From the NCBI GenBank assembly GCA_009785175.1, contig WQWV01000023.1, positions 1 through 14,980 of the forward strand: a stretch of DNA of 14,980 bases, in the 5' to 3' direction. Below the pieces are notes generated by a model. It ran no database searches and had not been told where the DNA came from. It worked only from the letters and a program-made list of their open reading frames with translations. Each line of letters begins with the position of its first letter. The stretch's first letter is position 1. Source of the stretch: Alphaproteobacteria bacterium (GTDB taxonomy: Bacteria > Pseudomonadota > Alphaproteobacteria > Rs-D84 > CACZYB01). Of this stretch, positions 4,207-13,536 are shown piece after piece. A program made the translations under genes and the position numbers.

Positions 4207-4228
4207 TTCGTTTTTCACGAGTTGAGGA

Positions 4229-4257
4229 ATCCCCGGTTTCGGCCGGGGATTTTTTTT
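4229..4257 (+). terminator. Rho-independent terminator of pnp
   Basis: ATCCCCGG (4229-4236), loop TTTCGG, CCGGGGAT (4243-4250), then a run of 7-8 T. Confidence 0.8.
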
Positions 4258-4383
4258 ACTAACGCATATATGACAGCGCGCCGCAGGCGGCCAGTGCTCG
4301 CCCCCACCCGGGCGCTGGCTCAAACAAGTTTTCGCGCCCCCGGGGCTCGACTGTCCGCCGTTTTCTTTTCCTTAAAATATCCC

Positions 4384-4413
4384 TTGACAAAATATTGCGG
4401 GGGGGGGTAGGTT
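4384..4413 (+). promoter_or_regulatory. Promoter module M1 with a G9 tract in the spacer (candidate phase-variable promoter of the flotillin-like gene)
   Basis: Perfect TTGACA (4384-4389), then an 18-nt spacer containing GGGGGGGGG (4399-4407), then TAGGTT (4408-4413). A leader with SD AAGGA follows 8 nt before ATG 4451. The module is near-identical to M2 at 6136-6165. Confidence 0.5.
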
Positions 4414-4450
4414 AGTCTATAGGTCTAATAAAATAAAAAGGAAAAACACC

Positions 4451-6001
4451 ATGGAACTTATTCAATATATAATGCTTGGAGGCGCATCCGCCGCAACCCT
4501 TACCGCTGCGATCGTCGGTTATAAAATCTTGAAATTGCGCACGATCGTGCCTGCCGATATGGTGCACATTGTCCAAAGCGTAAAGAATACCACATCGTAT
4601 GGTAAAGACCAAAAGGACGAGAATAAAAAAGACACCGGAAACGTCTATTATAAATGGCCTCAGATGATCCCGGTTCTTGGTGTCGTGGTCAAGCAGTTGC
4701 CGGTTTCCAACTTTGATATCCGCATGGATAATTTCGAGGCGTATGACAAGGATCGTGTTCCCTTCAACGTCGATGTTTCCACCTTCTTCCGCATAGCCGA
4801 TACCAACAAAGCGGCCGAGCGCGTCGCCTCGTTCGACGAACTGAGAAACCACCTTACCGTAATGGTGCACGGCTCGGTCCGTTCCATCATGGCGAACGCG
4901 AAACTCGAGGAGATCATGGAGCAGCGCTCGACCTATGGAGAAAAGTTCACGAAGGAAGTCGAAGACCAGCTCAAGGCCTGGGGTGTCGAGCCTGTCAAGA
5001 ACATCGAGCTTATGGACATACGCGATACGAAAGAGTCCACCGCCATCGCGAACATAATGAAAAAGAAGCAGTCCGAAATCGCAAAGGAATCACGCACTAC
5101 CGTCGCCCTTAACAACAAAGAGGCGGATATGGCCGAAATAGACGCCGAACGCGAGGTCGAGGTAAAGCGCGCCGAAAAAGAACAGTTGGTCGGCGAGCGC
5201 AATGCCGAGAAGAATCGCGTTATCGGTATCGCCAACGAACAGCAAAAACAGTTGGTTGCCGAACAGGAAAAAATCACTGCGGAAAAGGATCTCGAAATCA
5301 CAAGGGTCAAAGAAATAACAAACGCCGAAATCGCGCAGAATAAAAGTATCATCGAAGCCGAAACCACCAGGAAGACTGCGGTCATCAAAGCCGACCAGGA
5401 CAAGGAAACCATGAAGATCAAGGCCGAGGCGGATAAGGAAAAGATGAGGATAGACACCGACGCAAAAAAATACGAGACGGAAACCATCGCCGATGCCGAC
5501 AAGCTTGCCAAGGAAAAGAACGCAAGCGCCCACCAGACCATGGAACTTGCCAAGGCCGCCGGTATAAAGGCGACTGGTGAAGCGTCGGCCGATGCCGAAA
5601 AGATGCTCCAGCTTGCCCGTGTTGTCGCGGAAAAGGAGTTGGCGGAAACCATCGGCTCGAACAAGGAGTATCAGGAATACCTGATCAACCTTGAGAAGGT
5701 CAAAAAGAATGCCGAAGTTGCGATCAAGACCGCCGAATACAACTCGGAAGTCGGAAAGGAACAGGCCAAAAACTTGAATAAAGCCGATATAAAAATCATC
5801 ACGAATACTTCTGATGGAAATGTCGGTGGCGGTGTAAGTAAGGTCATGGATTTGTTCTCAAGCAAGGGGGGCCAGGCCGTCAACGGAATGTTGGAAACTT
5901 TGTCCAATACCGATATGGGCAAGGGACTGCTTGAAAAAATCGGTGTTATAAACAAAGGTAAGCAAGACCAAGTAAAAGGCGCGCTTGATAAACAGAGATA
6001 A
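4451..6001 (+). CDS. Flotillin-like SPFH/band-7 membrane protein (FloT/YuaG/YqiK type)
   Basis: 516 aa. N-terminal TM helix (LIQYIMLGGASAATLTAAIVGYKIL). SPFH domain (...FNVDVSTFFRIADTNKAAERVASF...VEPVKNIELMDIRD). Long EA/K-rich coiled-coil. Gly/Ser-rich C-terminal tail (IKIITNTSDGNVGGG...), resembling the B. subtilis FloT architecture. SD AAGGA lies upstream. Confidence 0.85.
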   Translation: MELIQYIMLGGASAATLTAAIVGYKILKLRTIVPADMVHIVQSVKNTTSYGKDQKDENKKDTGNVYYKWPQMIPVLGVVVKQLPVSNFDIRMDNFEAYDKDRVPFNVDVSTFFRIADTNKAAERVASFDELRNHLTVMVHGSVRSIMANAKLEEIMEQRSTYGEKFTKEVEDQLKAWGVEPVKNIELMDIRDTKESTAIANIMKKKQSEIAKESRTTVALNNKEADMAEIDAEREVEVKRAEKEQLVGERNAEKNRVIGIANEQQKQLVAEQEKITAEKDLEITRVKEITNAEIAQNKSIIEAETTRKTAVIKADQDKETMKIKAEADKEKMRIDTDAKKYETETIADADKLAKEKNASAHQTMELAKAAGIKATGEASADAEKMLQLARVVAEKELAETIGSNKEYQEYLINLEKVKKNAEVAIKTAEYNSEVGKEQAKNLNKADIKIITNTSDGNVGGGVSKVMDLFSSKGGQAVNGMLETLSNTDMGKGLLEKIGVINKGKQDQVKGALDKQR

Positions 6002-6024
6002 TATTTGCCCTTGTTAAAGAAAAT

Positions 6025-6050
6025 CCCCCCTCTTCGGAGGGGATTTTTTT
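6025..6050 (+). terminator. Rho-independent terminator of the flotillin-like gene
   Basis: CCCCTC (6027-6032), TTCG tetraloop, GAGGGG (6037-6042), then T7 (6044-6050). Confidence 0.8.
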
Positions 6051-6072
6051 GTAGTATATTATAAACTCGATT

Positions 6073-6122
6073 CACTTCATCACACTATCGCGCTAGTGTG
6101 ATAGTGTAATGAAGTGTTTTTT
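6073..6122. repeat. Palindromic element B (CACTTCATCACACTATC ... GATAGTGTaATGAAGTG) followed by T6
   Basis: 17-bp inverted arms at 6073-6089 and 6100-6116 with one mismatch, a 10-nt loop, then TTTTTT (6117-6122). Outer arms and the CACACTATCG block match element A (545-594). It ends 19 nt upstream of the M2 -35. Confidence 0.5.
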
Positions 6123-6135
6123 CATAAAACAATGC

Positions 6136-6165
6136 TTGACAAAATCCTCCGGGGGGGGGTAAGTT
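6136..6165 (+). promoter_or_regulatory. Promoter module M2 with a G9 tract in the spacer (candidate phase-variable promoter of the small Cys-rich gene trio)
   Basis: TTGACA (6136-6141), an 18-nt spacer containing G9 (6151-6159), TAAGTT (6160-6165), then a leader with SD AAAGGAAA before ATG 6200. The M1/M2 alignment is CTTGACAAAAT..CGGGGGGGGGTA.GTT.AGTCTAT...TAATAAA..AAAGGAAA. Confidence 0.5.
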
Positions 6166-6199
6166 TAGTCTATTCGTTTAATAAACAAAGGAAATAGAA

Positions 6200-6451
6200 A
6201 TGAAATGTATTTATGACGACAACAAAGAATGTAAATCAAACGGAGAGTGCTATGACACGGTCTGCATGGACATGAGCACGTTTAATATGAAAAATTTCAA
6301 AGAAAAAGTAAATGCCGAGCTTGCCGAGCGGGCAAAAGGTTCGGGGGAAAAGTATGCTCCGATAGGCGGCTTGATCCTTAGGTCCGGTCATGTCTTCTCG
6401 GAAATGTATCAGGCGATCTGCTGTGTTAAAGCTTTTGGCAACCAAAAATAG
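6200..6451 (+). CDS. Small cysteine-rich protein, paralog 1 (unknown family)
   Basis: 83 aa. SD AAAGGAAA at 6187-6194. No signal peptide. N-terminal MKCIYDDNKEC...C...C motif, central GSGEKYAPIGG, and C-terminal MYQAICCVKAFG. All three are shared with the next two ORFs. Confidence 0.65.
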   Translation: MKCIYDDNKECKSNGECYDTVCMDMSTFNMKNFKEKVNAELAERAKGSGEKYAPIGGLILRSGHVFSEMYQAICCVKAFGNQK

Positions 6452-6500
6452 GAAATAAAAATGAAGTGGATGCCCGACGGGCGATAGGGGGAAGATAATT

Positions 6501-6737
6501 ATGATATGTATCTATAGCGACAGCAAAGCCTGTGTAAATAACAGAATGTGTTATAAGATAGTTTCGCAGATAGGAAGCCTTGATCCGGATAGTTTCCAGG
6601 GTAAGGTCAATGAAGTCATTATAAGGAAGCAGGGGAACTATGTCCTTAACGGAGGAGTGGCGGCGTGTGCGGAATCAGAAAACAAACATGCCTGTATGTT
6701 CCAAGCGCTTCGTTGCGTAAATGTGCGTCAAGGATAG
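6501..6737 (+). CDS. Small cysteine-rich protein, paralog 2
   Basis: 78 aa. SD GGGGGAAG upstream. MICIYSDSKAC..C N-motif, KQGNYVLNGG centre, and MFQALRCVNV C-motif are homologous to paralogs 1 and 3. Confidence 0.6.
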   Translation: MICIYSDSKACVNNRMCYKIVSQIGSLDPDSFQGKVNEVIIRKQGNYVLNGGVAACAESENKHACMFQALRCVNVRQG

Positions 6738-6743
6738 TTAGTT

Positions 6744-6983
6744 ATGCGATGCAAATTCGACGATTACAAAGAATGCAACGCCGGACCCGAGCAGAAGTGC
6801 CGCGAGATCGTTCAAGCGGGAACCAAATCAAGCCTTGTCAGCAATGTAAGAAAAGTGGTTGCCAATAATATCGAGGGCAGCGGCGAAAAATACGTTGCTG
6901 TGGGCAAAGCCAAGCAGACGGGCAGCTCGCAATGGTATCAGTGGATTTATTGCCTGAAGAATCCGGGCGCGTACGACAGGTAG
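6744..6983 (+). CDS. Small cysteine-rich protein, paralog 3
   Basis: 79 aa. SD AGGATAG upstream. It starts 7 nt after paralog 2 ends. MRCKFDDYKEC N-motif, GSGEKYVAVG centre (identical core to paralog 1), and YQWIYCLKNPG C-motif. Confidence 0.65.
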   Translation: MRCKFDDYKECNAGPEQKCREIVQAGTKSSLVSNVRKVVANNIEGSGEKYVAVGKAKQTGSSQWYQWIYCLKNPGAYDR

Positions 6984-7193
6984 GGAGAACCCGCCATTTA
7001 GCGCGCTGGCGTTGTCATCTGCGAGTAAACCTATCGGTCATGGAAGCATGTAGTCCACTTCCTCAAGGTTTCTCTTGATTCCTAGCCATCATCGCGAACT
7101 GCGCCAGCATTCGCACTTGCCACGCCGTAGATTTATCGAAGGCGGGTCGCCGCACGAAGGCAACTTACGTTGCGTTCGCAGGCAAATTAAACC

Positions 7194-7237
7194 ATTGATA
7201 TTTTTAAGGGGGGGGGCGCCTTCGGCGTAGCTATAAA
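7194..7237 (+). promoter_or_regulatory. Degenerate third copy of the G9 promoter module (TTGATA ... G9 ... TAGCTATAAAT)
   Basis: TTGATA (7194-7199), 8 nt, GGGGGGGGG (7208-7216), then CGCCTTCGGCG replacing the TAGGT of M1/M2, then TAGCTATAAAT. No plus-strand gene lies downstream, only a hairpin and then lon in antisense. Confidence 0.3.
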
Positions 7238-7238
7238 T

Positions 7239-7287
7239 CCCTCCTGCAAAGCTTGCGCTGTCCTGCGTCCAGCTCTTCGCAGGAGGG
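7239..7287. terminator. Long stem-loop between convergent lon and the small-gene trio (possible bidirectional terminator)
   Basis: CCCTCCTGC (7239-7247) pairs with GCAGGAGGG (7279-7287) around a 31-nt internally structured loop. It is 7-15 nt from the lon stop. Flanks are GTTTGGTT on plus and ATTTAT on minus, so the U-tracts are weak. Confidence 0.4.
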
Positions 7288-7293
7288 GTTTGG

Positions 7294-9798
7294 TTATGGT
7301 TGTGCTTTGCTAGCGATGATAGGAGATGAGGCCACAGGCATATCCTCCAAGAGGCGGGCGAAGAAGTTCGCGGGCTCCTTGTCCACAATCGGTTTCGGCG
7401 CGGTGAGGAGCGCTATTTTCAAAACTTCGTCCGCGGTTTTGACGGGAATGATTTTTATCTTCTCTTTCACTATGTCGGGAATTTCGGTTAAATCCTTTTC
7501 GTTTTCATACGGGATAAGCGCGGTTTTGATTCCGGCGCGCATGGCCGCAAGCAGCTTTTCCTTTAGTCCGCCGATGGCGAGAACCCGGCCGCGAAGCGTC
7601 ATCTCGCCGGTCATGGCGATATCGCGGCGCACCGGGATTTCGGTTAAGGTCGATACTATCGAGGTAAGCATCGCGATGCCAGCCGACGGGCCGTCCTTGG
7701 GCGTGGCGCCCTCGGGCACGTGGATATGAATATCGATCTTGTTCCAGATTTTGGGATTTATACCGAAGGATTTCGAGCGGCTCCTTATAAACGATTTCGC
7801 CGTTTCGATCGATTCCTTCATCACGTCGCCAAGCTTGCCGGTGAACTTGGCTTCGCCTTTGCCCTCCATGACCGCGGTTTCGATCGAGAGCATTTCGCCG
7901 CCGACCTCGGTCCAGGCAAGGCCGTTTACGAATCCGACCTCGTCCCTTTTACCTGCGCTTAGGTGGTCGTATTTTTCGGGGCCCAAATAGTCGGCGAGGT
8001 TCGCGGCGGAAACTTTGATTATCTCCTTTTTCACTTCGTCGGCGATGAGTGTGAAGTTGTCGGAGGACGGCGCGGCGCGTTCGATTTTCAACGCCGCCTT
8101 TCGCATGATTTTATCGATTTGGCGTTTAAGGCCGCGGACGCCCGACTCGCGCGTATAGTTCGAAATAACCTTTTTCAGCGCGGCGTTGTCGATTTCGATT
8201 TCGCGCGCGGTAAGCGAATTTTTTTCAAGGCATTCGGGTATGATGTGGCGCTTGGCGATTTCCAATTTCTCGGTCTCGGTATAGCCGGAAAGCTCGACAA
8301 TCTCGAGTCGGTCGAGAAGCGGGCGTGCGATGCGGTCAAGCGAGTTGGCCGTGGTGATGAACATGACCTCGGAAAGATCGTAATCAAGGTCGAGGTAGTG
8401 GTCGGCGAACGTCGAATTTTGTTCGGGATCAAGAACCTCGAGCATAGCTGCGGCCGGGTCGCCATGAAGGCGGTCCGCTCCCATCTTGTCGATTTCATCA
8501 AGCAGGATCAGCGGATTTCCGGTGCCTGCTTTTTTAATCGTGGAAAGTATCTTGCCGGTGGTCGAGCCGACATAGGTTTTCCTATGCCCGCGGATTTCCG
8601 CCTCGTCGTGAACGCCGCCAAGCGAGAGTTTCGCGAATTTGCGGCCGGTGGCGGTTGCGATGGCGCGGCCAAGGCTTGTCTTACCTACGCCAGGAGGGCC
8701 GGCGAAGCAGAGGATTGTCCCCTTCGTCTTGCCGGCGCGTTTTTGGATTGCCAAGAATTCTAGTATCCTGTCCTTGATTTTATCGAGGCCGTAGTGCGCT
8801 TCGGTAAGCGTCTTTTCCGCGAAGGCGAGGTCGTTTTTCACCTCGTCGCGTTTGCCCCACGGAAGATCAAGCACGGTTTCGATGTAGTTGCGAAGCACGT
8901 TCGCCTCGGACGAGTGCGAGTTCATTTTTTTGAGCTTATTCAGGTCGGCCTTCACGCGGGCGGCGGCCTCTTTGGAAAGCGGCGCTTCGGCTATACGTTT
9001 TTCAAGAGCCGAGAATTCGTCGTCGCCTTCGTCGCCAAGCTCCTTTTGGATCGCGCGCATGGCTTCGTTAAGGTAATACTCGCGCTGGTTTTGGTTGATC
9101 GACTTGTTGACCTCGACGCGAATCTTCTGATCCACTTTGATCTGATTTATCTCGTTTTCAAGAAGGGCGATCAGGGCCCTTATGCGGCCGGCCATCGTGT
9201 CTTCTTCGAGTATCTTCTGTTTCGCCGCGATCTTGCCGGGAATGGACATCGCGATCGTTGCGACAAGGAGCAGGGGCTCGGCTATTTCGTCAAGGTCGCC
9301 GGTCGAGGAAACCATCGCGCTGCGCCCGGATTTTAGGTAGCGGTAAAAACTTGCAAGGAGTGCGCGGCGAAGCGTTTCTACCTCGAGTATGCCGTGCGGA
9401 GGGTAGCTTGTTTCCTCGTCGGTCGGCACGGTGGTCGCCCAGAGGTCGCCCTGCCTCGGCTCGAACGAAATGGCGCGGACCTTCTCTTCGGCCTCGACAA
9501 TCAGCTTCATCGAGCCGTCGGAAAGCGTGGTGTTCGAAACCACATACGCGCGCGCGCCGATGTCATAAAGATCGGCGTCGGTTTTCGCCTCTTTCACGCC
9601 TTCACGCACCGCCAAAAGTAGGAGGGGCGAGCCGGTGTTGACCGCCTCGATTATCGACTGGTTCGGCTTCTGCCCGGACGTGATCACCGGGATCATCATG
9701 CCGGGAAAGGGGACTATGTCCGCAAGGGGTAGTATAGGCAACGCCTCGCGCGGATTTCTGTCTTGGCGGGAAAGCCGTCTGGGTTTGGAAAACAACAT
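7294..9798 (-). CDS. lon: ATP-dependent Lon protease
   Basis: 834 aa. N-terminal LON substrate-binding domain ([17 protein letters not shown]). Walker [19 protein letters not shown]+ module. C-terminal serine protease domain with [17 protein letters not shown] and the catalytic KEKLLAA motif. Confidence 0.95.
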
Positions 9799-9804
9799 GG
9801 TGAT

Positions 9805-9838
9805 AGTATAGGGAAGTTTTTACGGGAATTCAAGGGGG
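9805..9838 (-). promoter_or_regulatory. lon promoter: sigma32-like CCCCCTTGAA-N15-CCCTATACT that also reads as sigma70 TTGAAT-17-TATACT, predicted leaderless
   Basis: Minus strand: CCCCCTTGAA (9829-9838), then CCCTATACT ending at 9805, 6 nt, then ATG (9796-9798). No SD is present. Confidence 0.45.
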
Positions 9839-9867: not shown

Positions 9868-9895
9868 TTGAAATATTTGCGTGTCCGTCTATAAT
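9868..9895 (+). promoter_or_regulatory. sigma70-type promoter for lpxA, predicted leaderless
   Basis: TTGAAA (9868-9873), 16-nt spacer, TATAAT (9890-9895), 7 nt, ATG at 9903. No SD is present. Confidence 0.5.
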
Positions 9896-13245: not shown

Positions 13246-13536
13246 TCAATCATCTTTCAAATAACACTTCATCGTAGTATCATCATGGGTGAAAATTGCT
13301 TCGTCGCCCTTGCCGTGGAATTCGGCGGTGTCATTCGTGTATTTAGCGCCGGAGGCCGAGGGGACGCGTTCAAGCCCCCTGAAAAACTCATACGAATTGC
13401 GGCCGGTTTTAAGCAGCACATCGGCGCCGTCTTCGCGCGGCCTTAGCTCGAGCTTTGTATCGGCACAATCATATATGATTTTTTCTGATGTCAAAGCGCA
13501 GGAGGCAAGGCCCATGACCAAAAGTATTTTTTTCAT
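13246..13536 (-). CDS. mliC: MliC/PliC-family lysozyme-inhibitor lipoprotein
   Basis: 96 aa. Signal peptide with lipobox LASC. IIYDCADTKLEL...VPSASGAKYTNDTAEFHGKGDEAIFTHDDTTMKCY follows the MliC pattern (Y.C......L......SASGARY.dG.yE.w.KGDEA.L......C) with the two conserved Cys. Confidence 0.7.
   Translation of the reverse strand: MKKILLVMGLASCALTSEKIIYDCADTKLELRPREDGADVLLKTGRNSYEFFRGLERVPSASGAKYTNDTAEFHGKGDEAIFTHDDTTMKCYLKDD

Follow-up and report, generated by a model that had tools for sequence, protein, structure and literature searches.

The stretch of DNA considered here, positions 1 to 14,980 of contig WQWV01000023.1 (assembly GCA_009785175.1) and called the window below, belongs to a bacterium that we take to be an uncultured, deep-branching alphaproteobacterium of the termite gut. 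It carries truB (585-1661), rpsO, pnp (2041/2119-4206), a gene for a flotillin-like protein of the SPFH/Band-7 type (4451-6001, plus strand), a trio of small genes for Cys-rich proteins (6200-6983, plus strand), lon, lpxA, lpxI and two tRNA genes. The product of the flotillin-like gene has 516 aa and a hydrophobic anchor at its N-terminus, and the trio consists of three paralogues at 6200-6451 (83 aa), 6501-6737 (78 aa) and 6744-6983 (79 aa). Upstream of each of these two units lies a copy of one and the same promoter-like module, and in both copies the spacer between the -35 and -10 hexamers contains a run of nine G residues (G9). How did such a pair of promoters arise, and can a spacer of this kind work as a switch?

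Module 1 (4366-4450, plus strand) has a perfect TTGACA at 4384-4389, nine further nucleotides, the first G9 tract at 4399-4407 and TAGGTT at 4408-4413, and it leads to the ATG at 4451. Module 2 (6118-6199, plus strand) has TTGACA at 6136-6141, again nine nucleotides, the second G9 tract at 6151-6159 and TAAGTT at 6160-6165, and leads to the ATG at 6200. Both spacers (4390-4407 and 6142-6159) are 18 nt long, and the G9 tract makes up the 3' half of each, directly abutting the -10 hexamer. Both copies then continue on the plus strand with a conserved block, TAGTCTAT (4413-4420 in module 1 and 6166-6173 in module 2), and with a ribosome-binding site, AAAGGAAA (4437-4444 and 6187-6194); an A/T-rich stretch precedes the -35 hexamer of module 1. 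An earlier note on this DNA had read the arrangement as TTGACA, 9 nt, G9 and TA(G/A)GTT with a spacer of 18 nt, and this arithmetic is correct at 4384-4413 and at 6136-6165. A degenerate pattern written for both copies has two matches in the window and none in 200 shuffles.

When 4384-4453 is aligned globally with 6136-6202, identical residues stand in 55 of the 71 columns (77%), with three small gaps that take up 5 columns in total, and from the -35 to the -10 hexamer the count is 26 of 30. The alignment scores 36, against -11 ± 5 (maximum 6) across 2000 shuffles, and when the regions upstream of all genes in the window are compared pair by pair, the two modules score 32 and the runner-up 4. 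The longest perfectly conserved block is CGGGGGGGGGTA, while the other columns of the module differ at 23%. Since the likeness extends about 18 nt upstream of the -35 hexamer (4366-4413 versus 6118-6165, 79%), the length of the module comes to about 85 nt. The repeat reported previously is therefore real and far above chance, but the description of its two segments of about 70 bp as near-identical was too strong for an identity of 77%.

What kind of promoter would this be? By inspection, 18 nt is the sole register in which a TAnnnT hexamer is found 15-19 nt from the perfect TTGACA, and TTGACA, 18 nt and TA(G/A)GTT together fit a sigma-70-type promoter, from which transcription would start at about 4419-4422 in module 1 and about 6172-6175 in module 2. 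Other assignments were considered and set aside. By inspection against the consensus sequences, the sigma-32 promoter (CTTG, 17-18 nt, CYTAT), be it of E. coli or of the alphaproteobacterial form, does not fit, and the promoters of extracytoplasmic function (ECF) sigma factors including EcfG (GGAAC...CGTT) and of sigma-54 (TGGCAC, 5 nt, TTGC) are absent. Alternative -10 hexamers further downstream, at CTATAG or CTATTC, come without a conserved -35. Copy 1 has some resemblance to a promoter of the SP6 phage polymerase (TAGGTTAGTCTATAG versus TAGGTGACACTATAG), but in copy 2 the resemblance is broken by an indel and by TATTC, and no phage-type polymerase gene lies nearby. Rfam finds nothing in the region; its one sub-threshold match, to a Thr leader (26 bits, cut-off 55), coincides with the terminator and the palindrome and was judged to be due to chance.

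That the two units are transcribed separately is suggested by what precedes each module. Downstream of pnp lies an intrinsic terminator on the plus strand (4228-4256; CCCCGG..CCGGGG followed by T8; -22.7 kcal/mol, z -3.9), which shields the flotillin unit from transcription that comes from upstream; none of 200 shuffles folds as well. The flotillin-like gene is followed by another on the same strand (6026-6050; -18 kcal/mol, z -3.6, then T7), and then by a long perfect palindrome made of CACTTCATCACACTATC and its complement with a T6 run that would give a U6 tail (6073-6123, plus strand; -25.8 kcal/mol, z -6.5), which we read as a second terminator-like hairpin upstream of module 2. Because strong terminators stand upstream of both modules, each unit needs a promoter of its own, and because the intergenic gaps within the trio (50 and 7 nt) contain no terminator, its three genes can be regarded as one operon. 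The earlier proposal of separate promoters for the flotillin-like gene and the trio thus holds, with homologous sigma-70-type modules and strong terminators before both, and duplication of a promoter is well supported in silico as the explanation. A framework for such events exists, as Matus-Garcia et al., in "Promoter propagation in prokaryotes", described highly similar promoter segments before non-homologous genes of one genome (PMC3488235). The present modules are similar in just this way, with 77% identity over 71 columns upstream of unrelated genes. Unlike mobile promoters, they exist in two copies only, which are adjacent and show no features of mobile elements, and a homopolymeric spacer is outside that concept.

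Which of the two copies is the original? Among the contigs with related proteins are two from metagenome-assembled genomes (MAGs) of other termite-gut Alphaproteobacteria, L017 and L103. The flotillin gene of L017 (protein 54% identical) is preceded by TTGACA-AAAAGCCAAAGGGGAAGG-TAATAT (L017:3936-3965) and that of L103 (55% identical) by TTGACA-ATATGGGGTGATTTTGTC-TATTAA (L103:311-340), each with a spacer of 18 nt, each after a terminator, and the two have a conserved 5' untranslated region, GCAGAGAGAACAACAAAAAAAGGAA, in common. Exactly at the position of the G9 tract, L017 carries an interrupted G run, GGGGAAGG, and no homopolymer occurs in the promoter of any flotillin homologue inspected; more distant homologues of the termite Treponema type (59-62% identity) lack G tracts, and their promoters are of the ordinary TG-TATAAT kind. 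The recurrence of TTGACA with 18 nt in L017 and L103 supports the promoter assignment and suggests that the G9 tract arose from a G-rich spacer. From these comparisons we conclude that the unusual spacing of 18 nt is conserved across three lineages and is probably native to this family of promoters, and that promoter 1 would be the ancestral flotillin promoter, that is, a sigma-70-type promoter with a perfect TTGACA, a G-rich 18-nt spacer and a weak TAnnnT as its -10. In the lineage of the host, the G-rich 3' half of the spacer would then have become an uninterrupted G9, after which the cassette of about 85 nt, from the A/T-rich stretch to the ribosome-binding site, would have been copied to the front of the trio operon. 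These relatives, whose promoters keep the same length without any homopolymer, weaken the earlier idea that 18 nt is a single G off the optimum.

Runs of nine G residues stand apart from all other G runs in the window. There are 34 runs of four, 9 of five, 1 of six, none of seven or eight, and 3 of nine, and the longest C run is of six. Geometric extrapolation gives about 0.04 expected runs of nine or more, and the probability of finding at least three is about 1e-5. The third tract, overlooked by the earlier note, is located at 7208-7216 on the plus strand, within the non-coding gap of 310 nt (6984-7293, 54.5% GC) between the trio and the stop codon of lon. Since this census leaves lengths seven and eight empty and no further G9 tract occurs in the extra 3.3 kb of a longer contig from ENA, so that, out of 18.3 kb, a segment of 2.8 kb contains all three, nine G's form a discrete and locally clustered class rather than the tail of a distribution. 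The tracts at 4399-4407 and 6151-6159 are uninterrupted and exceed the length of about 7-8 nt from which homopolymers count as slippable; as G9 stands out clearly in run length, this anatomy makes phase variation plausible. The third tract is followed by a small hairpin, CGCC-TTC-GGCG, and then by a large one at 7240-7288. An origin of this tract as a diverged copy of the module finds no support in the alignment, and no pair of -35 and -10 hexamers fits around 7208-7216 on either strand.

The locus is covered in part by four assemblies, namely the JGI window, ENA ERZ27264051 and two Logan assemblies (SRR5215205 and SRR10512954). Their overlaps, of up to 12 kb, are 100% identical and show no single-nucleotide polymorphism (SNP), so that all four represent one strain. 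Tract 2 is G9 in all four, and the two Logan assemblies read through it in a single contig without a break; tracts 1 and 3 are G9 in the JGI window and the ENA contig. Ends of Logan contigs at 7129 and 7258 were considered as a possible sign of heterogeneity, but they lie off the borders of tract 3 (7208 and 7216) and are uninformative. A scan of metagenomes for both tracts at any length from 5 to 14 nt, with a pattern verified to work on the window itself, returned no match in a collection that does not hold the window's own contig.

The products of the two units are of different kinds. The protein encoded at 4451-6001 matches PF01145 (E 2.8e-18) and combines the SPFH/Band-7 domain with an N-terminal anchor (residues 4-22 are hydrophobic) and with a long helical region rich in Ala and Glu, as a flotillin does; the helical region, at about 230-480, is our own reading of an Ala/Glu/Lys-rich sequence. 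Its score with the NCBIfam FloT equivalog model NF058507 is 26 bits versus a cut-off of 700, so we call it flotillin-like and not FloT; its homologues are at most 65% identical, and many of them are named flotillin by JGI. The trio proteins are 34-37% identical to each other, with C3, C11, C17 and C75 conserved. Among 5.8 billion proteins the only homologues found were the trio itself, as hypothetical proteins of the NCBI MAG "Alphaproteobacteria bacterium" (FWD15_04670/75/80), and no Pfam or NCBIfam family applies. A weak match of the third protein to the "2TM effector" model of PADLOC (E 0.0016) was judged to be noise. An AlphaFold2 model suggests, at low confidence (pLDDT 63.5), a beta-alpha-beta-beta arrangement for which no fold match was found in the PDB. 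With no predicted signal peptide and no predicted hydrophobic or membrane segment, the trio is an orphan family predicted to be soluble. The earlier note had named surface proteins as what such tracts classically control; an SPFH protein with an N-terminal anchor and three proteins of this sort are not surface proteins.

Poly-G tracts in promoter spacers are well known from pathogens. The precedents cited earlier, porA and opc, are real, and so is TP0126 of Treponema pallidum (PMC7864442). In porA of Neisseria meningitidis, which has a sigma-70 promoter, the -35 and -10 hexamers have a poly-G tract between them that sets their spacing, so that a change by one nucleotide alters both spacing and transcription, with the peak of expression at 17 nt; TP0126, which encodes an OmpW homologue, has its poly-G tract in the same place and its optimum also at 17 nt (PMC7864442). 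The two modules here resemble porA in having a homopolymeric G tract within the spacer, whereas in opc, whose promoter has poly-C, the tract overlaps the -35 and is not in the spacer. Unlike the present genes, porA and opc code for antigens in the outer membrane of a pathogen, and both variation and its effect on expression were demonstrated by experiment; here the host is a gut symbiont, the products are an SPFH protein and orphan proteins for which no membrane segment is predicted, and variation was not observed. T. pallidum offers a further likeness, as several promoters of its one genome (TP0126, tprE/G/J and tprL) have poly-G tracts, and in tprL the tract ranges from 7 to 11 G's and is mostly 9 (PMC7864442). 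Its tracts vary measurably within isolates, unlike those described here, which also differ in their resting spacing of 18 nt and in that two of them sit in duplicated copies of one cassette.

The contingency loci of Campylobacter jejuni are another point of comparison. This bacterium is not known to have the MutS/MutL repair system, and its tracts are mostly within coding regions, where frameshifts switch genes ON and OFF; all three tracts here, in contrast, are intergenic. Its poly-G/C tracts have a modal length of nine, as the three tracts here do, and they mutate at rates of 1e-4 to 1e-3 per division, G8 and G9 mostly gaining and G10 and G11 mostly losing a residue (PMC3401435). Given this modal length and the length-dependent bias, three tracts of exactly nine fit an equilibrium of slippage. 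Such an equilibrium can be taken as an argument for hypermutability, and it would also accommodate the third tract, which lies in no promoter. As to flotillins, no paper was found that ties a bacterial flotillin to phase variation.

How might the duplicated promoters then work? Transcribed separately from equivalent promoters, the two units would for that reason be co-regulated. Slippage during replication that adds or removes one G would alter the distance from the -35 to the -10 hexamer: with G8 it would be 17 nt and the promoter probably stronger, with G9 it is the 18 nt of the native working state, and with G10 it would be 19 nt and the promoter weak or off. The most likely outcome of such changes would be a heritable and reversible dial that sets how strongly both units are expressed, by analogy with porA and TP0126. 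A switch through a mutable spacer may well be what these modules amount to, and it is the explanation that we prefer, with a confidence that stays somewhat short of an even chance. A bolder version seems rather unlikely to us, namely that the duplicated poly-G promoters form a coordinated contingency switch of a flotillin-like scaffold and the orphan Cys-rich proteins, with tract 3 as a decayed switch or as a mark for a G9-specific factor. If it is true, phase variation driven by repeats would affect not only surface antigens in pathogens but also the way in which the membrane of a symbiont is organised internally.

A number of observations weigh against a switch. Neither site is called in a scan of the window with the sigma-70 consensus, since the -10 hexamers agree with TATAAT at just three of six positions; these are T1, A2 and T6, the three strongest. 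No variation in tract length is seen in the four assemblies, which, being of one strain and being consensus assemblies that hide minor length variants, say little on this matter. The lineage is isolated and offers no close relative for a comparison of the locus, with at most 65% identity for the flotillin and at most 66% for polynucleotide phosphorylase (PNPase), whose next relatives in metagenomes are at about 55%. The products, intracellular or membrane-anchored, do not belong to the surface, host-interaction or restriction-modification functions that are typical, if not strictly defining, of phase-variable genes. The third tract cannot act via promoter spacing and is left unexplained by a spacer model. 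And with both promoter tracts at G9 and a spacing like that of the repeat-free promoters of L017 and L103, 18 nt looks like a fixed functional spacing. There is also a competing explanation, a serious possibility which we nevertheless consider doubtful: the modules would be ordinary duplicated promoters, G9 would be the current spelling of an 18-nt spacer and might tune promoter strength through its composition, co-regulation would come only via the shared promoter, and in a host proficient in mismatch repair length variants would be rare and of no biological use. The conserved 18 nt of L017 and L103, with GGGGAAGG in the former, speaks for such a fixed spacer, as do the invariance of G9 in all assemblies (tract 2 being read through in both Logan assemblies), the housekeeping-like or intracellular nature of the products, and the known reuse of promoters before non-homologous genes (PMC3488235). 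It is harder to reconcile with the strong over-representation and clustering of G9 runs and with the fact that the tract is uninterrupted in both copies though 23% of the other module columns have diverged; besides, a G9 run is by its very nature liable to slip (PMC3401435).

G9 might instead be a recognition element, bound by a DNA-binding factor (or, at tract 3, an RNA-binding one), so that its length would matter for binding and not for spacing, and the three sites would mark one small regulon around the flotillin-trio segment. In its favour, the three tracts consist of exactly nine G's on the same strand, one of them is outside any promoter, and within the module conservation is highest in the G block. 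We consider such an element quite unlikely. We know of no factor that recognises G9 or C9 runs, none of the genes in the window encodes a candidate regulator, and the flanks of tract 3 have nothing in common with the module; the equilibrium of slippage predicts an equal length as well (PMC3401435). Finally, homopolymers are prone to errors, such as two-colour poly-G calls or miscounts, and all the data are metagenome assemblies; might the tracts be artefacts of sequencing or assembly? This is extremely improbable, as the same internal G9 is found in four assemblies from different pipelines and at least two different runs, and the tracts are flanked by unique sequence far from contig ends.

What would follow in either case? 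If the tracts vary, promoter-spacer phase variation would be found outside the classic pathogens, acting on an SPFH/flotillin scaffold and small proteins and not on surface antigens, and two units would have been wired together by the copying of one switchable promoter. The orphan trio would thereby be linked functionally to the flotillin-like protein, and it would seem that subpopulations of a gut symbiont differ in how their membranes are organised. Without such variation, the locus would still be a neat case of a duplicated promoter with a G-rich spacer of 18 nt. The mechanism is in either case a textbook one, as in porA and TP0126, so that the finding adds an example and not a principle, in an unusual host and at unusual genes.

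A scan of the genome_contigs collection, which does not hold the source MAG, for the core motif returned only unrelated MAGs of Thermodesulfobacteriota and Patescibacteria. In the former (OZ240231.1) the layout is TTGACAAAAT, 2 nt, G10 and TAGGTT or TAGATT, with a spacer of 16 nt, and it occurs at L013:2829-2856, at about L013:6750-6759 and at L015:1029-1056, in each of the three cases before a gene for a secreted LRR-repeat protein; these proteins are paralogous, and two of them, with frames that reach the end of the stretch, exceed 800 aa. Judged from their sequences they look like a phase-variable family of surface proteins. The Patescibacteria MAG (JAHIRI010000048.1) has TTGACAAAATTAC-G9-TAAGTT, also with 16 nt, at L014:4104-4131, upstream of an open reading frame (ORF) of 77 aa that precedes rpsB-tsf. 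The occurrence of one layout, TTGACAAAAT with G9 or G10 and TARGTT, before LRR paralogues was counted in favour of a switch.

Some further features of the region are worth recording. Between the pnp terminator and module 1, about 110 nt (4257-4365) are GC-rich and contain no convincing ORF; they could be the remnant of an older gene or a junction left by insertion of the flotillin-trio segment. The 17-mer CACTTCATCACACTATC has four copies in the window where none is expected (544-594, 6073-6117 and 13265-13281), and a palindrome similar to that at 6073-6117 is located at 545-594, between a CYTH gene on the minus strand and truB. This repeat may be an element like the repetitive extragenic palindromes (REP), a terminator or an operator. 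Behind the trio, the large hairpin at 7240-7288 lies in a stretch of 107 nt (7190-7296) that folds with -42.9 kcal/mol on the plus and -37 kcal/mol on the minus strand, and it is probably a two-way terminator, serving the trio and also lon (7294-9798, minus strand), whose 3' end faces the trio. At the other end of lon, good promoter sites are found at 9805-9833 (TTGAAT-17-TATACT, minus strand) and at 9868-9895 (TTGAAA-16-TATAAT, plus strand). They end just 7-8 nt ahead of the start codons of lon and lpxA, so that either the mRNAs of these two genes are near-leaderless or their start codons are mis-assigned.

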